A program made the translations under genes and the position numbers. The notes beneath the pieces were generated by a model. The model was not told the origin of the DNA. It saw only the letters and a program-made list of their open reading frames with translations, and searched no databases. A stretch of DNA of 64,000 nucleotides from a virus. Positions 30,894 through 56,563 of the stretch are shown here, piece after piece; within the stretch, counting starts at the first letter, position 1; every line of letters starts with the position of its first letter. The stretch covers positions 32,001-96,000 of the IMG/VR virus record IMGVR_UViG_3300010938_000009. One strand, given 5' to 3'.

Positions 30894-33290
30894 TTACTTC
30901 CTTTTCTGCACTTCTACTTTAGTTTTAGCTCCCCAATCATACTGCACTTTACAGTTAGGTAATAAAGCCCATAATACAGGGTATTTAGGTTTTTTTAGCT
31001 CATTACCTTCAAAGTTCATACCATCAGTAAAGTAAATTAAACCGTCTATTTCTAAGTCTTTACACTTATCAAATACAGGTTTAAATGCAGTACCACCTCT
31101 ACCTTTAAACTCAAACTTATGTTTAGGATCAAATTCTCCTATCCATTGAATTTTAGCATCACAAGCTATTAAAGTAATTTTAACGTCATCTCTATGTATT
31201 CTATCTACTTCCGCCATAAATTGATTTAAACACTCTGTATCAACTGAACCTGATTCGTCAATAGCTACTGCTAAGTGTAGTTTAGGATAAACTTTAGTTC
31301 CTGGAAAAATAATACCATAACGTCTATTTCTAGCTTTTCTTGAGGACTCAATAACTATTTCTGCTGTTTTAGCTACAAACCTTTGTAAGTCTTGTTTCCA
31401 GTTTTTAGGTTTATAATTAAGCCTATTAATAGCTTCAAGTATATCTCCAGGTAAATTACCTATACCGCCACTTTGTTCTACAGATTTATTAATTATAGAC
31501 TTTACCTTTTCAGTAACATATTCTTCATCGGGATTACCTTCAGCCCATAAACTATGATCATCAATTATTATAACTCCTTGTCCACCGCTTTGATTACCAT
31601 CTTTACTTTCTTCTTGCTTAAGAAATTCATAGTAATATTCCATATTTTGCCTATGTTCTATTCTAGGTATTTCTTTCTTTAAGTCTTCTACTAAACAAGG
31701 TCTACCTTCCATTGGTTTACCTGCATCTAGACTAGGATTAGGTATTTTATTACCATCTTTATCCATTATTTCAGTAGGATGACGCATTACATTACCTTCT
31801 TTATCAAACATTTGTAGTTTTTTAGGTAAATTAGGTAAATATTCATTAATAGCATAATCTGCGGCTCTGTTTAATCTATTAGCATCAAACATACTTTTAA
31901 TTTTATCAATTAAAGGTTTATCTTTTTCTAACATATTAGGTTCAAGGAAATTAAACCTGTGAAAGTGATTCATCATTACATGATAACAATTGTGTACAAG
32001 AGTTTTATTTGCAAAAAAATTATGATTATCAGCTACAGTAATATCATACAATTGTGATCTTACAAACTTTTTATTTTTTACAGAAATTATCTTTTTTGCT
32101 GAAAATTCTAAAAAGTTTGTATTAAGTTTTTTAGAATTTAATTTATTATAATATTTTTCAGAAATTTTATATTTCATGCTATTATGAATATAAGGTGCTA
32201 TTAAAGCAAATAATTTATTTGTAGCTTCTTTTTTTAATTTAATATTAAATAAATGTGGTTTTCCAGATCTTTGTTTAATTTCTGATCTTAAACCAAATTT
32301 ATTTTTTAAAGTTTTTACAATAAGTTTTTGTTCTTCCAAAGAAAAACCTTCCGTATGAAAAAAAGAAGAACCATAATTATTCCAACTTCCATCATCCATA
32401 AACCAAAAAGCTAAAGCTACAGTATCTAAATTTTTCATTAAAAACTTAATATTTTTTTTGTTTTTAATATAAACTAATTCTCTTAGTTTTTTTGTTTGCT
32501 CATTAGTGCCATGATTGATCCTTAAATTAGAGTATTCATTTTTATAATCGCTCCAACTATTTACAATTTTTCCACCTAATATAGAATGTTTATATTCTAT
32601 ATAATCTTTATGAATTTTGCTTCCAGTAGAAGAAAATTGACCTGTAGAATTAATACAAGAATCTCCCAATAAACAACCGATAATTACACTTAATTGATCT
32701 TTATTGAATAAAGGTCTTTCTTTGTTTCTTTGTCTATCTATATCTATTTTTCTAATACTATATAAATTTTTAGCTTTTTCCGCTTCAATATACTCTATTT
32801 TTGGATTAAATATATCTCTAGTTACAGCTATTTTATGATCATTCGTACAAACTACTGAAGAGTATAAATAAGGACTTTTAGCATATTTCAAACTTACCCA
32901 TCGTTTATTAGGATAATCTTTAATAGGTTTTTTAGAATAACCTATTACTGGTTTATATTCTAATTTTCCTTTTTTAGATAAAGATAGAACATTTACTTTA
33001 AGTTTATTTTCTACTATTTCTCCAATAGTAATATCTCCTTTATCTGTTTTTACTAATACGTTTTTAGCTACACATTCATGCTTTAAAACGTCTACTTGCT
33101 CTGTTAATGACATACTTTTCCAAAAGAAAGGGTTAACATACAGATTTACATTATCTGTAACATTAACTCCCAAAGTTGGTACATCAGTAGTATAAGTTCT
33201 AGTCATATTTAATATTAAATTAGCAAAAAAGGGTTCTTTTTTAATTAACTCTGTTATCGCTACTTCTATTAAATTTGCATGGTTACTCAT
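30894..33290 (-). CDS. Metallopeptidase-VWA (DUF2201-type) protein, intein-containing
   Basis: HE|CYH after splicing, N.AAD.AIN, DDH..W, VAIDESGS, GRGGT.F, YFTDG. Confidence 0.88.
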   Translation of the reverse strand: MSNHANLIEVAITELIKKEPFFANLILNMTRTYTTDVPTLGVNVTDNVNLYVNPFFWKSMSLTEQVDVLKHECVAKNVLVKTDKGDITIGEIVENKLKVNVLSLSKKGKLEYKPVIGYSKKPIKDYPNKRWVSLKYAKSPYLYSSVVCTNDHKIAVTRDIFNPKIEYIEAEKAKNLYSIRKIDIDRQRNKERPLFNKDQLSVIIGCLLGDSCINSTGQFSSTGSKIHKDYIEYKHSILGGKIVNSWSDYKNEYSNLRINHGTNEQTKKLRELVYIKNKKNIKFLMKNLDTVALAFWFMDDGSWNNYGSSFFHTEGFSLEEQKLIVKTLKNKFGLRSEIKQRSGKPHLFNIKLKKEATNKLFALIAPYIHNSMKYKISEKYYNKLNSKKLNTNFLEFSAKKIISVKNKKFVRSQLYDITVADNHNFFANKTLVHNCYHVMMNHFHRFNFLEPNMLEKDKPLIDKIKSMFDANRLNRAADYAINEYLPNLPKKLQMFDKEGNVMRHPTEIMDKDGNKIPNPSLDAGKPMEGRPCLVEDLKKEIPRIEHRQNMEYYYEFLKQEESKDGNQSGGQGVIIIDDHSLWAEGNPDEEYVTEKVKSIINKSVEQSGGIGNLPGDILEAINRLNYKPKNWKQDLQRFVAKTAEIVIESSRKARNRRYGIIFPGTKVYPKLHLAVAIDESGSVDTECLNQFMAEVDRIHRDDVKITLIACDAKIQWIGEFDPKHKFEFKGRGGTAFKPVFDKCKDLEIDGLIYFTDGMNFEGNELKKPKYPVLWALLPNCKVQYDWGAKTKVEVQKRK
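31989..33074 (-). mobile_element. Intein (362 aa) with LAGLIDADG endonuclease, inserted in the HExxH motif
   Basis: LKHE|CVAKN...CTNDHK...GCLLGDS...WFMDDG...LYDITV.DNHNFFA..TLVHN|CYH. Confidence 0.9.
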
Positions 33291-50780: not shown

Positions 50781-52382
50781 ATGCAAGTTCAATATAATAC
50801 AGAAGGTAAACCTTTAAGAATAAATGAACTCGACATAGAAGGTTTAGCTAAATGGTTATATGAAAATAAAGTTAGAACGACTCAAGGTAAATTATATCAA
50901 CCATTACATAAGGGACATTTAGAAGTTTTAAAAGATCCAGCTAGATTCAAAGTTTTAGCTTGCGGTAGAAGATGGGGGAAAACTTTATTAACTTCTTTAA
51001 TGGCTTTAGCTGTTCTGTTTCAAATGAACAGAAGAGTTTGGATTATTGGCCCAGATTATTCTTTGTGTGAAAAGGTTTTTAGAGAACTTTATAGCATTTT
51101 AGTATTACAATTGAAGATTATAGTTCCTGGAAAAAAAGGACGTGCTCGGAACCAAAAAGGGGATTATTACTTAGAAACTCCTTGGGGAAGCATATTAGAA
51201 GCTAAATCAATGGAGAATCCTGACAGTTTAGCAGGAGAAGCGAACGACCTAATTATTATAGATGAAGCAGCTCTTACAACTAATTTAGAAAATATATGGG
51301 TGCAAATGCTAAATCCGACGTTAATGGATAAAGAAGGTTCAGCAATTTTTATTTCTACACCACGAGGTAAAAATAATTTTTATAAACTATTTTTATTTGG
51401 TGAAAAAGGTAAACGACAAAGAGAGGGTAAACTTAAAATAACCATAGATCCAGAAACAGGCATTAATAACGATATGACTGAATGGAGTAGTTTTCAGAGA
51501 ACTAGTTACGATAACCCTTTGTTAGCAGCTACGCCAGAAAAATCTAAAAGTGAAATTGATGCTGCTTATAGACGCTCTATAATGTCTGGTAAAATAGTCA
51601 TGTTTAAACAAGAATACTTAGCAGATTTTGAATCAGTTTCTGACAGTTGTTTTCCAGGTTTTAACGTAGAAGCTACTGAAAAAATACAATATCCTAATGT
51701 AATAGATTATAATTGGCACCCTGATGAAGGCCCAATTTACTCAGCTTGCGATCATAACTTTGCTAAACCAGCAAGTACTATATTCGCTCAAGTAAATCAA
51801 TTTGGAGACGTAGTAATATTTGATGAATATTTTACACCACATACAACCTCCTACATGCAAGCCCAACAAATAGTAGACAAAGAAAGAGAACTTACAAGAA
51901 GAGCTATAAAAATTTGGGACGACGAAGCACAATTATTAAAAAATAGAAGACATATAAAATTTGAAGAAATAATAGCAGATATTTCAGGAGATCAAGTACA
52001 ACTACATGGTAGAGCAGCTTGGGATGATTTTGAAGCAGTTTTAGGTAGAAGACCAAAAGGTTTAGCTCAAAATAGAGAAACAGGTTGTAATATGATAAGA
52101 CTTTGGTTACAATTTCCAAAGTTTGATCAAAAAGGACAGCCAGTATTCGACAAAAACAACGAACAAGAAACTTACCCTAAATTATTTGTTTCTAGTAATT
52201 GTACTAATTTAATTTACGCTTTAAGTACTGCTAAGTTCAAAAAAGGAAACGGCGGCAACTTAAAAGAAGATTATGAAGAAACTCCAGAAGGTTACGAAGG
52301 TTTAATTGATGCTTTACGTTATTTAATAGTATACTTATTTCACAATAAGGGTAATTACGTAGAAGTTTACAAAGGATTTTAA
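50781..52382 (+). CDS. terL: Terminase large subunit
   Basis: CGRRWGKT Walker A, IIIDEAA Walker B, ISTPRG.N.FY, F.QEYLADF, C-terminal DALRY. Confidence 0.93.
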   Translation: MQVQYNTEGKPLRINELDIEGLAKWLYENKVRTTQGKLYQPLHKGHLEVLKDPARFKVLACGRRWGKTLLTSLMALAVLFQMNRRVWIIGPDYSLCEKVFRELYSILVLQLKIIVPGKKGRARNQKGDYYLETPWGSILEAKSMENPDSLAGEANDLIIIDEAALTTNLENIWVQMLNPTLMDKEGSAIFISTPRGKNNFYKLFLFGEKGKRQREGKLKITIDPETGINNDMTEWSSFQRTSYDNPLLAATPEKSKSEIDAAYRRSIMSGKIVMFKQEYLADFESVSDSCFPGFNVEATEKIQYPNVIDYNWHPDEGPIYSACDHNFAKPASTIFAQVNQFGDVVIFDEYFTPHTTSYMQAQQIVDKERELTRRAIKIWDDEAQLLKNRRHIKFEEIIADISGDQVQLHGRAAWDDFEAVLGRRPKGLAQNRETGCNMIRLWLQFPKFDQKGQPVFDKNNEQETYPKLFVSSNCTNLIYALSTAKFKKGNGGNLKEDYEETPEGYEGLIDALRYLIVYLFHNKGNYVEVYKGF

Positions 52383-53466: not shown

Positions 53467-53534
53467 CCTCATAATAAGATACACGATGGACAGTAGAGCT
53501 GTTCGACCTGTTCCTTGAGAGGAAAGGAGGAAAA

Positions 53535-56500
53535 TTGAGTTTTAACCTAGGCGTGTCTAATCATCCAACGAGTAGATTAGGCGGATTAAGTTCTGTAGGG
53601 ATTTATCTTTACGAAGATATTTACTATAGACAGTGGATCAGTGAGATCGCCTTGGCCTTTTATGAAGGTGAATATATCGGCCTTCGCTTTAAGTAATTAA
53701 AGAGTTATGATGCGACAAGACGAATTAAGATAAGTTCGTCGGTAACGAAAGTTACAAAAATAATATAAATAACCACAAAATGTTATCTGGTTAGACTTAG
53801 AGTAAGACAGTTTCGTAATCCTGAGAAAATTTAAAAACTGTTTACTGAGTCTCTAAAATGGGGTGAATTGCTGGAAACTCCTAAAACTCACATAGCTACA
53901 AAGTAAATCGAAAGATTAAGCTTGACATGCTAGAGAATATGTGAGATACTCCTTAAAAGGTGTAATGGATAATCAGCAGCTAAGCGTAGTAGGGTTTAAG
54001 TTACTGCGAAAGTTCAACGACTAGAAGGTGAGTCCCAACAATAAGTCCTTCCTGAGAGTGCCCGATCCTGACCGAGTAAAGTCGAAGGATAAGATATAGT
54101 CTACTCCTATTTGAAAAAAGAGGTATATGATTAACGTAAAAAAATTAAAAAGTTCCGAATTAGATTCCGCCATATATGGTATGATTCTAGGTGATGGATG
54201 TATACAAATGGCTAGTTCTGGAAAAGGAAATAGCAATTTAAAAATAGGACATTCAATAAAACAAGAAGAGTATTTAAAATGGAAACAAGAGATTGTAAAT
54301 CAAATTGGAACGGTAAAAACTAGATTTTGGTATTATCAAAAACAAAACGCTTGTTATATAGAAACCAACACTAGAAACTACTTTACTAAATTAGAAAAAA
54401 TATTTTATATTAACAGAAAAAAAACTATTAATAAAAAAATATTGAATAAATTAACAGATTTATCTTTAGCTATATGGTTTTTAGATAATGGTTATATGAG
54501 TTATAATAAATCTGGTTCTGTTTACGGAGAACTCTGTACAGATCAATTTAGTTTAGAAAAAGTACAATTAATAAAAGATTGGTTTAAAATTAAATTTAAT
54601 ATGGAAGTTGGTATTAGAACTTTACGATATTTAAGCGGCAAACAAAAAGATACTATAGCTTATAGAATAAAGTTTAACAAAGAAAACTGTATTAAATTAA
54701 CAGAAATAATTAAACCTTATGTTAATCAAGTGAGTTGTATGCACTATAAATTATACGAGAATAAAATTGCTTCTCAGGCAGTAGAGAAATCTTCTGTGCA
54801 AAAATCTGTTATTGAAGCAACAGATACTACCACTTAATCTTACTAAAGAGATTATAGATGAAACCTCTATACTATATAGAGAAGATCCTATATATCAAGT
54901 AGTAGATGATAAGGGTAAGATATTAAAAAAAGATCAAGAATTATGGGAGCAAATCCAAAAGGATTCTCGCTACTTGACCTTTATGGACAAACTTGATAGA
55001 TGGGTACGACTACTAGGTACCGTACTAGTTAAAGTTTCTTTTGTAGATCCGCAGACTGGACTACTAGTAGATAAAAATAAAGAAGGTACTGTACAACTGG
55101 ATATGCTACATGGCGGCGTATACGATATAAGACATGGAGCTTCTCCCTACTATATTACAGAATTACTTATAGGTTTTGGCACTAAATTTGGAGGATTCAG
55201 AGAAAGATCTGGAACTCAAATTATAGGCGGATCACTTACAGGTAAATTACCTGATCCTAGTAGTATGGGGCAAGCCGACATAAAAACACGACAACGAATT
55301 GATTCTCCAGGACAATTAGGTTCAGTTAATAGAATTTATTGGAGTGCTCACTCACATTACGTTGAGGACGAAGATAGTAAGTATTACGAAACTAAAAATC
55401 CTTATGGAATAATTCCTGCTGTGCCGTTTTTTAATCAAGACCCAGCTCACTATTACTTTTTACCAATTAATGAACCTCTTATTTACGCTAATCATGCGAC
55501 TAATATGAGGATTACAGATTTGAATCATATTGCTAAGTTTCAATCGTTTGGAGTACCTGTAGTAAGTGGTATCGAAAGACCTACTTCACTAAGACAAGGT
55601 AGACCTGTAGACGATTTTAACGTATTAAAAGGTGGTACAGCTCAATCTAGATTTGGTGGAATTAGTGGTTTTGGAGCTAACGGACAATTTAGAACCTTTG
55701 ACCAAGGTTTAGGAGTAACAAGAGATGGAAACGCTGATGCTAATGCATTAGGTTTTTCTATTGGACCTGATACTGCTATAGCTGTTGGAGAAAAAGGGGA
55801 TTTTAGATTTGAACACCCTTCTGCAGATATTACAGGCTTAATTAAGGTTATACATAGTATAACTGATATGGTTAGAATTAACCACGGATTAAGACCTAAA
55901 TATGAAAATACATTACCTTCATCAGGTTTTGCATTATTAATGGAGAAGATTGGTGTTATAGAAAATAATATTAGAAGAGGTAAACTCTTTAAAGAAAGAG
56001 AAGAACAACTTTTCAATGTTATTAAGAATTTGTGGAATGTACATCATAATAAATCAGGAAGTAAAAGGTTTTCTGAAAAAGCTAAGTTAATTATAACTTA
56101 CGTTAATCCTAAATTTCCAGTTGACCCTAAAACTGAAAAAGAAGATATTATGATGGAAAGTAAAATAGTAGAAACTGGAGACAGAGCTGCTATTAAAAGA
56201 ATGTATCCACACATAAAAGAACCAGAAATAGATAAATTAATTATACAAGCAAGAAAAGATAAAGAAGAAAGATCCTTATTTGAAGCTGAACTTCAAGCCA
56301 AGGTTACTGAGATTATAGGACCTAAAGAAGATCCTAAAAATCCTGGAGCTAAACATAAATATTTAAGAAAATCTAAAGAAGCAGAAAGCGACAAAGAAAC
56401 TTATATTTATGAAGACGAAGACGGAAAAGAAAAAGAAGTCAAAAGATTAGATAAGAGTAAGGAAAAACTAGGTAAGCCTAAGATCGATAATAAAGCAAAA

Positions 56501-56563
56501 CACGCTGAAGAAAGTTCTAAGCAACCTGGTAAAAATGGTGATCCAAGAAGAAAAGAGGAGTAA
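53535..56563 (+). CDS. Portal protein, predicted spliced: join(53535-53669, 53713-53725, 53783-53798, 53801-53825, 54815-56563), 645 aa
   Basis: AGGAGG SD plus TTG at 53535; joined frame reads ...LAFYEG-RQDEF-IWLDL-VRQFRNPE-KQQILPLNLTKEIIDETS..., NPYGIIP, SGFAL; lies between TerL and scaffold. Confidence 0.8.
53670..53712 (+). ncRNA. Core-less group I-type mini-intron 1 (43 nt)
   Basis: P1 GAAGGU/GCCUUC ending in U.G; P10 CGA/UCG; CUUUAA-GUAA-UUAAAG hairpin; ends in G. Confidence 0.7.
53726..53782 (+). ncRNA. Core-less group I-type mini-intron 2 (57 nt)
   Basis: P1 GACGAAU/GUUCGUC ending in U.G; P10 UUAUCU/AGAUAA; GUAAC-GAAA-GUUAC hairpin; ends in G. Confidence 0.75.
53826..54814 (+). mobile_element. 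Group I intron (IA-like core) carrying a LAGLIDADG ORF
   Basis: P AAUUGCUGGAAA 53866-77, Q AAUCAGCAGC 53971-80, R GUUCAACGACUA 54012-23, S AAGAUAUAGUC 54091-101; P7 GACUA/UAGUC; exact ends inferred. Confidence 0.88.
54127..54837 (+). CDS. Intron-encoded LAGLIDADG homing endonuclease or maturase
   Basis: IYGMILGDG, HS.KQ.EYL.WK, LAIWFLDNG, CTD.FS, M.YK. Confidence 0.88.
   Translation: MINVKKLKSSELDSAIYGMILGDGCIQMASSGKGNSNLKIGHSIKQEEYLKWKQEIVNQIGTVKTRFWYYQKQNACYIETNTRNYFTKLEKIFYINRKKTINKKILNKLTDLSLAIWFLDNGYMSYNKSGSVYGELCTDQFSLEKVQLIKDWFKIKFNMEVGIRTLRYLSGKQKDTIAYRIKFNKENCIKLTEIIKPYVNQVSCMHYKLYENKIASQAVEKSSVQKSVIEATDTTT

Follow-up and report, generated by a model that had tools for sequence, protein, structure and literature searches.

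A 43-nucleotide insert in a phage portal gene: a core-deleted group I intron that may depend on the complete intron downstream

The portal gene of a phage known from a 104,283-bp IMG/VR virus genome with direct terminal repeats (IMGVR_UViG_3300010938_000009) raises the question of how a conserved and essential structural gene can be expressed when its coding sequence is broken in four places and only the last of these breaks is a complete intron. The gene was analysed here in a window of 64,000 nucleotides (nt), positions 32,001 to 96,000 of that record; coordinates below are those of the window unless another locus is named, and the parts of the portal gene lie on its plus strand. Our main subject is the first interruption, a 43-nt insert at 53670..53712 that we call mini-intron 1. 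The sequence evidence gives good support to its being a group I intron from which the catalytic core has been deleted. We further consider it fairly likely, on the same kind of evidence, that mini-intron 1 is excised by the core of the complete group I intron located downstream, acting either in cis or as free intron RNA.

The limits of the insert can be set from protein homology. A search of 5.8 billion proteins yielded 304 portal homologues, the intact ones being 620-650 amino acids (aa) long, and the uninterrupted homologues read ...ALAFYEG-RQDEF(V/I)WLDLVRQFRNPEKQQILP.NLTKE without a break. The residues AFYEG (GGT) and RQDE (CGA) adjoin in some 40 of them, and it is exactly there that 53670-53712 splits the window's gene. 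The same string is encoded in the window as five pieces (53535-53669, 53713-53725, 53783-53798, 53801-53825 and 54815 onward), separated in order by interruptions of 43 nt, 57 nt, 2 nt and by a 989-nt group I intron. Because the intact homologues run through these points, the borders of mini-intron 1 are fixed independently of any RNA motif. Exon 1 (53535..53669) opens with a TTG start codon after a strong AGGAGG Shine-Dalgarno sequence and encodes 45 aa that end in ...ALAFYEG and match the N-termini of intact homologues (P0002, P0036 and others). Exon 2 (53713..53725; 13 nt, CGACAAGACGAAU) specifies RQDE and the first base of F; exon 3 (53783..53798; 16 nt) completes F and continues with IWLD and the first two bases of L; exon 4 (53801..53825; 25 nt) supplies the last base of L, followed by VRQFRNPE; and exon 5 (54815..56563) reads KQQILPLNLTKE... 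through the stop codon. Translated together, the last four pieces give RQDEFIWLDLVRQFRNPEKQQILPLNLTK, and all 13 invariant residues of a portal alignment (A1) that fall in exons 2-4 are kept in the window. Unspliced, the frame from TTG 53535 reads ...YYRQWISEIALAFYEG and stops at TAA 53694-96, in agreement with the original prediction that the unspliced frame runs into TAA, and the main portal frame picks up again only at 54815. A single large intron extending from 53670 to 54814 was rejected, since it would delete 17-26 invariant residues whose codons are intact.

Within the insert, the elements that a group I ribozyme recognizes in its substrate are laid out compactly. The original prediction had assigned to 53664-53715 a P1 helix with a U.G pair at the junction, a P10 pairing, a GUAA hairpin and a terminal G, and direct reading of the sequence finds each of them in its proposed place. 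P1 pairs GAAGGU, the last six nucleotides of exon 1 (53664-69), with the guide GCCUUC (53680-85) through five Watson-Crick pairs and U53669.G53680 at the junction. Between the two strands lies the L1 loop (53670-79), and the UCG at its end (53677-79), directly 5' of the P1 guide, is complementary to the CGA that begins exon 2 (53713-15), forming P10. A hairpin of 6 bp with a GNRA loop follows (CUUUAA-GUAA-UUAAAG, 53687-53702), then a tail, AGUUAUGAUG, and the insert ends in AUG, with its terminal G at 53712. The minimum-energy fold computed with ViennaRNA consists of exactly P1 and the GUAA hairpin. Such a composite is very hard to obtain by chance: the combination of a 6-bp P1 with U.G at its end, an adjacent 3-bp P10 and a terminal G arose in one of 200,000 shuffles of the 43 nt (5e-06), and a scan of both strands of the 104-kb genome for the composite together with a GNRA hairpin matched only the 43-nt and 57-nt inserts, against 0.3 matches expected per shuffled genome. 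The P3-P9 core, on the other hand, is missing. No Rfam match lies inside 53670-53712, the sole core match being at 53805-54123; the 27 nt left after P1 amount to one hairpin and a tail; and no P7-like G-binding helix is evident within the 43 nt. As regards group I membership, mini-intron 1 thus combines a P1 with U.G, a terminal G, a P10 and homology to true introns with the absence of the conserved core, and for lack of that core it cannot be an autonomous group I intron.

The homology just mentioned emerged from a census of 51 distinct portal loci, taken from IMG/VR, JGI metagenomes and GTDB contigs, of which 42 are uninterrupted in this region of the gene. In three entries (L004, L006/L007 and L012), a complete group I intron of about 870-920 nt occupies precisely the position of mini-intron 1, GGT|CGN, which we refer to as site 1. 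These full introns begin TAAC..TCGGCCCTC and form a P1 of GAGGGU/GCCCUC (with the guide GCUCUC in L006); they contain the usual core motifs AATTGCTGG, AATCAGCAGCCAAG, GTTCAGAGACTA and GATATAGTCC and an internal open reading frame (ORF) for an endonuclease, the L004 intron giving a partial match to the group I model RF00028 (34.6 bits) and having a 235-aa ORF. The 5' end xAAx..TCGGCCYTC is common to them, and a nucleotide alignment (A2) shows the 43 nt of the window to be homologous to the 5'-terminal segments of these full introns. Given this homology, mini-intron 1 is an internal-deletion derivative of an intron that relatives have kept whole. Four further loci (L011, L019, L021 and L029) have only a full intron of the family to which the window's large intron belongs, near the NPE codons.

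A second derivative at site 1 is found in IMGVR_UViG_3300016675_000456 (L163), whose portal protein is 59% identical to that of the window. It holds a 35-nt mini-intron, GAGGGT|TAACATAGCGGCCCTCTTTAAACTTCGTCATTAAG|CGCCAAGAC, the first 31 nt or so of which are almost identical to the L004 intron. The suggestion made in the original prediction, that mini-intron 1 is a group I intron degenerated to the point where just its substrate elements are left, is thus supported both by the full introns at the same site and by this relative. With respect to the window, L163 also shows compensatory changes in both helices: P1 is GAGGGU/GCCCUC instead of GAAGGU/GCCUUC (an A-U to G-C change), and P10 is GCG:CGC instead of UCG:CGA. 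Across the five homologous sequences P1 is paired in 100% of cells and the U.G is invariant, so that the covariation of P1 and P10 proposed earlier as a check on the structure is indeed seen, with P1 conserved in all five and one compensatory change in each helix. When IMG/VR was scanned twice with degenerate patterns for additional mini-introns at site 1, the matches listed comprised only the window, L163 and chance matches, and scans of metagenomes and GTDB gave no closer relatives and no further mini-introns. A tblastn search of a phage collection with the portal gave no match.

Some short exon-1 ORFs on other contigs bear on the variety of interruptions in this gene. The ending of P0122, AFYEG-KMSALFLRK, agrees with an insert at site 1 that carries UCGGCCCUC. 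In P0125 an in-frame insert of 12 aa (36 nt) follows YYRQWI and a stop comes just past FRNP; this ORF may represent another mini-intron with a downstream full intron. The breaks in P0126 and P0127 fall after RQWI and suggest an additional intron site. The portal homologue of L180 contains an insertion of about 840 nt farther downstream in the gene, outside the studied region (match length 2702 versus about 1860).

If mini-intron 1 has lost its core, the catalytic centre for its removal would have to come from elsewhere, and the whole 104-kb genome contains one RF00028 core. It belongs to the complete 989-nt group I intron at 53826..54814, which combines an Rfam Intron_gpI match (53805-54123, 57.7 bits, including 21 nt of exon 4), a LAGLIDADG_2 endonuclease ORF (54127-54837) and, at its 3' end, a second guide module. 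The core starts 113 nt downstream of mini-intron 1, and in L163 a full intron of the same family lies 51 nt downstream of the 35-nt insert. In the census, mini-introns occur in two of the six loci with a downstream full intron and in none of the 45 without one (hypergeometric estimate, p ~0.012). On L163, moreover, the RF00028 model reaches its best score (81.5 bits) with the mini-intron hairpin in the role of P1 for the downstream core. Engineered group I ribozymes that remove introns from a separate pre-mRNA (PMC4094466) also count in favor of core-borrowing.

The mechanism that we favor on these grounds can be outlined as follows. An ancestral intron at site 1 would have lost P3-P9 by internal deletion and kept the P1 hairpin with its U.G, the P10 guide, a P2-like GNRA hairpin and the terminal G. 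The complete intron 113 nt downstream in the same pre-mRNA would supply the catalytic centre, into which the P1 of mini-intron 1 would dock. An external guanosine would cut after U53669; G53712 would then occupy the G-binding site while P10 aligns exon 2, and ligation of the exons (GGU|CGA) would release a 44-nt, G-capped RNA. That core would likewise act on the 57-nt mini-intron, on the 2-nt AG and in its own excision, so that a single portal frame of 645 codons is restored.

The proposed interplay between substrate modules and core gains in plausibility from the organization of the large intron itself. Near its 3' end, the guide UUGCUUCUCAGG (54767-78) is complementary to exons 4 and 5 across their ligated junction, and behind it come a GAAA hairpin and the terminal G (54814). 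Six members of this intron family have a guide of 11-16 nt, complementary to the ligated exons and located 42-65 nt from the intron 3' end, as exemplified by UUGCUU-CUCAGG against CCUGAG|AAGCAA in the window and by GUUGUUUUUU-GGGGUU against AACCCU|GAAAAACAAC in L163, and in these six members the guide co-varies with the exon sequence. The module, seen after the endonuclease ORF in the window (54767-54814), L149, L157, L158, L163, L175 and L155 (within the last 65 nt or so of the intron), proceeds directly from guide to hairpin, short tail and terminal G, the hairpin being capped by a GNRA loop in six members and by an AAAA loop in the truncated locus L155. To judge from its sequence, it amounts to a P1-P2 module relocated to the intron 3' end, so that the group I layout is permuted. 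Both mini-introns of the window are built in the same way (guide, GNRA hairpin, tail, G), and it is plausible that a P1-P2 substrate module with a terminal G is presented in each case to a separate P3-P9 core, the GNRA hairpin docking like P2/L2, in line with the docking idea of the original prediction. The hairpin would not be indispensable, since the L163 mini-intron has none.

Three other features of these introns were noted. In the large introns of the window, L157 and L158, the 5' splice site is preceded by G or A in place of U. The LAGLIDADG ORF ends at TAA 54835-37, 21-23 nt inside the downstream exon, and overlaps the 3' guide module; reaching as it does into exon 5, it is complete only in unspliced RNA. 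Finally, an ORF-less group I intron of 298 nt with the same core family (L151:2572-2869; RF00028, 106 bits) sits in portal exon 1 after ...SIGI and has a canonical P1 (GGAAUU/GAAUUCC) and a P2 with a GAAA loop at its 5' end, where such a module normally lies, which lends indirect support to a P2-like role of the mini-intron hairpin.

The remaining two interruptions of the window show a comparable logic. Mini-intron 2 (53726..53782, 57 nt) contains the P10 guide GAUAA, the P1 guide GUUCGUC, a GUAAC-GAAA-GUUAC hairpin, a 27-nt tail and a terminal G at 53782. Its P1 has 7 bp (GACGAAU/GUUCGUC, with a junction U.G) and its P10 has 5 bp (GAUAA:UUAUC); the minimum-energy fold of mini-intron 2 has z = -3.1. 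Exon 2 is divided without conflict between its two neighbors, CGA serving the P10 of mini-intron 1 and GACGAAU the P1 of mini-intron 2. No relative with a full intron at the site of mini-intron 2 was found among the 51 loci. The two extra bases AG (53799..53800) disrupt the frame where WLDL should pass into VRQFRNPE. The canonical guide of the core can pair on both sides of them, in a P1-like pairing, AGACUU/GAGUCU (with U.G at 53798 and the guide at 53847-52), and in a P10-like pairing, AGUAAGACAGUUU/AAACUGUUUACU; relatives share the exon-guide helix of this guide and lack the AG. Taken together, these arrangements raise the possibility that a single core acts as a natural 'spliceozyme' for the whole gene, removing the 43- and 57-nt mini-introns by means of their own guide hairpins, the AG by means of its canonical guide and finally itself by means of the 3' second guide. 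We regard the chances of this wider proposal as about even.

A sequence in which the small interruptions are already gone exists in public data. It comes from X2, one of three sequencing runs compared with the window and a wastewater library labelled METAGENOMIC RNA-Seq cDNA (complementary DNA), which was rated 'probably DNA' and has a longest contig of 60 kb. The X2 contig (257 nt, depth 8.9) joins 53492-53669 to the 13-nt exon 2 and then to 53783-53848 without AG 53799-800; the two mini-introns and the AG are thus missing with precisely the predicted borders, and the contig runs 23 nt into the large intron. The GGU|CGA junction that was looked for is therefore present in this contig, in a library labelled RNA-Seq yet rated 'probably DNA'. 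The contig differs from the window by three single-nucleotide polymorphisms (SNPs), two of which are shared by X1, a rhizosphere DNA run from a different study that keeps the AG and the 3' part of mini-intron 2 (53728-53782), mini-intron 1 lying outside its coverage. All three strain SNPs are synonymous third-position changes in exons 1 and 4, and selection on the interrupted frame is therefore indicated. The X2 contig resembles a splicing intermediate, with the small interruptions removed and the core still attached, and we rate an RNA origin as somewhat better than even, which falls short of proof. The exact joined form was not found in IMG/VR, and no sequencing run is listed as a clear RNA source for the stretch.

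A number of observations weigh against excision of mini-intron 1 by the downstream core, or lessen the force of the evidence for it. The X2 contig could be DNA from a sister strain free of the inserts, as the rating of the library and its 60-kb contig would imply, and X2 covers none of the remaining stretch in near-identical form, which neither an RNA nor a DNA reading explains easily. The covariation rests on five sequences, because only two mini-introns were found at this site, and a single compensatory pair in P1 was matched in 97 of 500 shuffles. The fold energy of mini-intron 1 is unremarkable (z = -0.8) and was dropped as evidence for that reason. The lack of a GNRA hairpin in the L163 mini-intron makes a docking role for the hairpin doubtful. 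A tether helix between mini-intron 1 and either the core or the 3' module was sought, and only AU- or GU-rich matches of 7-9 bp without support were obtained. Finally, mini-intron 1 would face competition for the active site from the P1 helix that belongs to the core itself.

Several other explanations of the locus have to be set against this proposal. The insert might be a dead remnant, an unspliced scar in a portal gene that is either broken or rescued by a co-infecting helper, with the X2 contig representing DNA of an intact sister strain. Internal deletions of introns are expected accidents, and the 'probably DNA' rating of X2 and the want of a run listed as an RNA source both fit such a scenario. 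It is difficult to reconcile, however, with a portal that is essential and a record that is a 104-kb genome with direct terminal repeats, and no Shine-Dalgarno sequence precedes TTG 54812 from which a truncated portal could start. The same kind of insert occupies the same site in the phage with a 59% identical portal, and an independent DNA run, which has distinct SNPs, also contains the AG along with as much of mini-intron 2 as it covers, the 3' part. The intact invariant residues of the micro-exons, the exclusively synonymous exon SNPs and the compensatory changes in P1 and P10 likewise speak for a gene that is still in use, and we consider a dead remnant unlikely. That the inserts result from faulty assembly or sequencing deserves mention on account of the metagenomic derivation of the record; yet X1 has the AG and the part of mini-intron 2 that it covers, an analogous insert exists in the unrelated IMG/VR contig L163 and the structure is highly non-random, all of which make an artefact extremely unlikely.

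Among the explanations that accept a functional gene, excision at the RNA level might proceed without the downstream core, through a minimal self-splicing element or through some protein or RNA activity of host or phage. Harris and Rogers provide a precedent in their report that a 67-nt Phialophora intron possessing just P1, P7 and P10 splices in vitro (PMC3160393), and the joined form in X2 is silent on the catalyst. Against it stand the occurrence of mini-introns only where a full intron lies downstream, the pairing of the mini-intron P1 with the downstream core in the Rfam model, the L163 version of just 35 nt and the 43 nt of the window, in which no P7-like G-binding helix is evident; excision of this kind appears quite unlikely. 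Ribosomes might instead hop over the 43 nt, as they do over the 50-nt bypass gap of T4 gene 60, with no RNA processing at all. Mini-intron 1 shares with that system a short non-coding gap of similar length in an essential phage gene, a take-off codon that would be a Gly codon and a hairpin near the take-off site. In contrast to gene 60, it follows group I splice-site logic and lacks matching take-off and landing codons (AUG, not GGN, precedes CGA), a mismatch that led us to reject bypassing, and the codon right after GGU is GAA and not a stop. Three hops within 130 nt would be needed, one of them of 2 nt; the X2 contig shows the pieces physically joined in a nucleic acid; and both the P1/P10/terminal-G arrangement and the descent from a real group I intron would be left unexplained. 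Translational bypass is accordingly a very unlikely account of the locus. Excision by the downstream core thus remains the explanation that we favor for mini-intron 1.

The place of mini-intron 1 among known elements can be defined by comparison. Self-splicing group I introns are established residents of phage genomes, such as those of T4 td, nrdB and sunY, and the three introns in Twort orf142 each have their own core. Like phage group I introns of the RF00028 type, mini-intron 1 has a P1 with U.G, a P10 guide and a terminal G, sits in an essential and conserved phage gene that harbors several introns and is homologous to the 5' end of an L004-type intron. Unlike them, it is 43 nt long, has neither a P3-P9 core nor an endonuclease ORF and is not autonomous. 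Degenerate organellar group II and group III introns, which depend on trans-acting helpers, offer a parallel in that catalytic parts are lost once their function is available elsewhere, even though ribozyme class, chemistry and hosts differ. Szostak and Doudna reportedly demonstrated trans reactions of a core plus a P1 hairpin.

Among published elements, the small degenerate group I introns of fungal ribosomal DNA (rDNA; PMC3160393) and the engineered spliceozyme (PMC4094466) come closest. The former, described from nuclear small-subunit rDNA of Phialophora (PaSSU, 63-75 nt), Arthonia and Porpidia (PMC3160393), are likewise tiny (56-81 nt) group I descendants that keep P1 and P10 and have lost most of the core. 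They reside in ribosomal RNA, have a putative P7 and are claimed to splice alone, whereas mini-intron 1 lies in a phage protein gene and has no P7; and, in contrast to the fungal introns, each phage portal mini-intron found is accompanied, a short way downstream, by a complete intron whose core it could use. The spliceozyme is a Tetrahymena ribozyme acting on a separate pre-mRNA, from which it excises introns (PMC4094466), and the reaction proposed here would similarly have a group I core excise a segment outside itself and join the flanks. The spliceozyme, however, is man-made and carries the guides in the ribozyme, while the portal mini-introns bring their own guide hairpins and share a transcript with the core. 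A search of the literature found no natural core-less group I mini-intron served by the core of a neighboring intron.

As to its genomic setting, the interrupted portal gene belongs to a phage structural module that spans about 50.7-57 kb of the window, where it follows the gene for the large terminase (50781-52382).

In practical terms, excision by the neighboring core would mean that gene callers systematically break essential phage genes at inserts of 35-60 nt such as those described here. The portal locus also constitutes a compact test case: relatives preserve the ancestor intron, L163 provides another, independent example, the genome offers one candidate catalyst, and public data contain what may be a spliced intermediate. 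If the proposed mechanism is true, a natural group I ribozyme serves several substrates on one transcript, a feat so far achieved only by engineering. Phage introns could, in that case, decay into non-autonomous satellites that parasitise the ribozyme of a neighbor, and group I introns at large can become non-autonomous elements that keep only their substrate helices, in parallel with non-autonomous transposons and degenerate group II introns.

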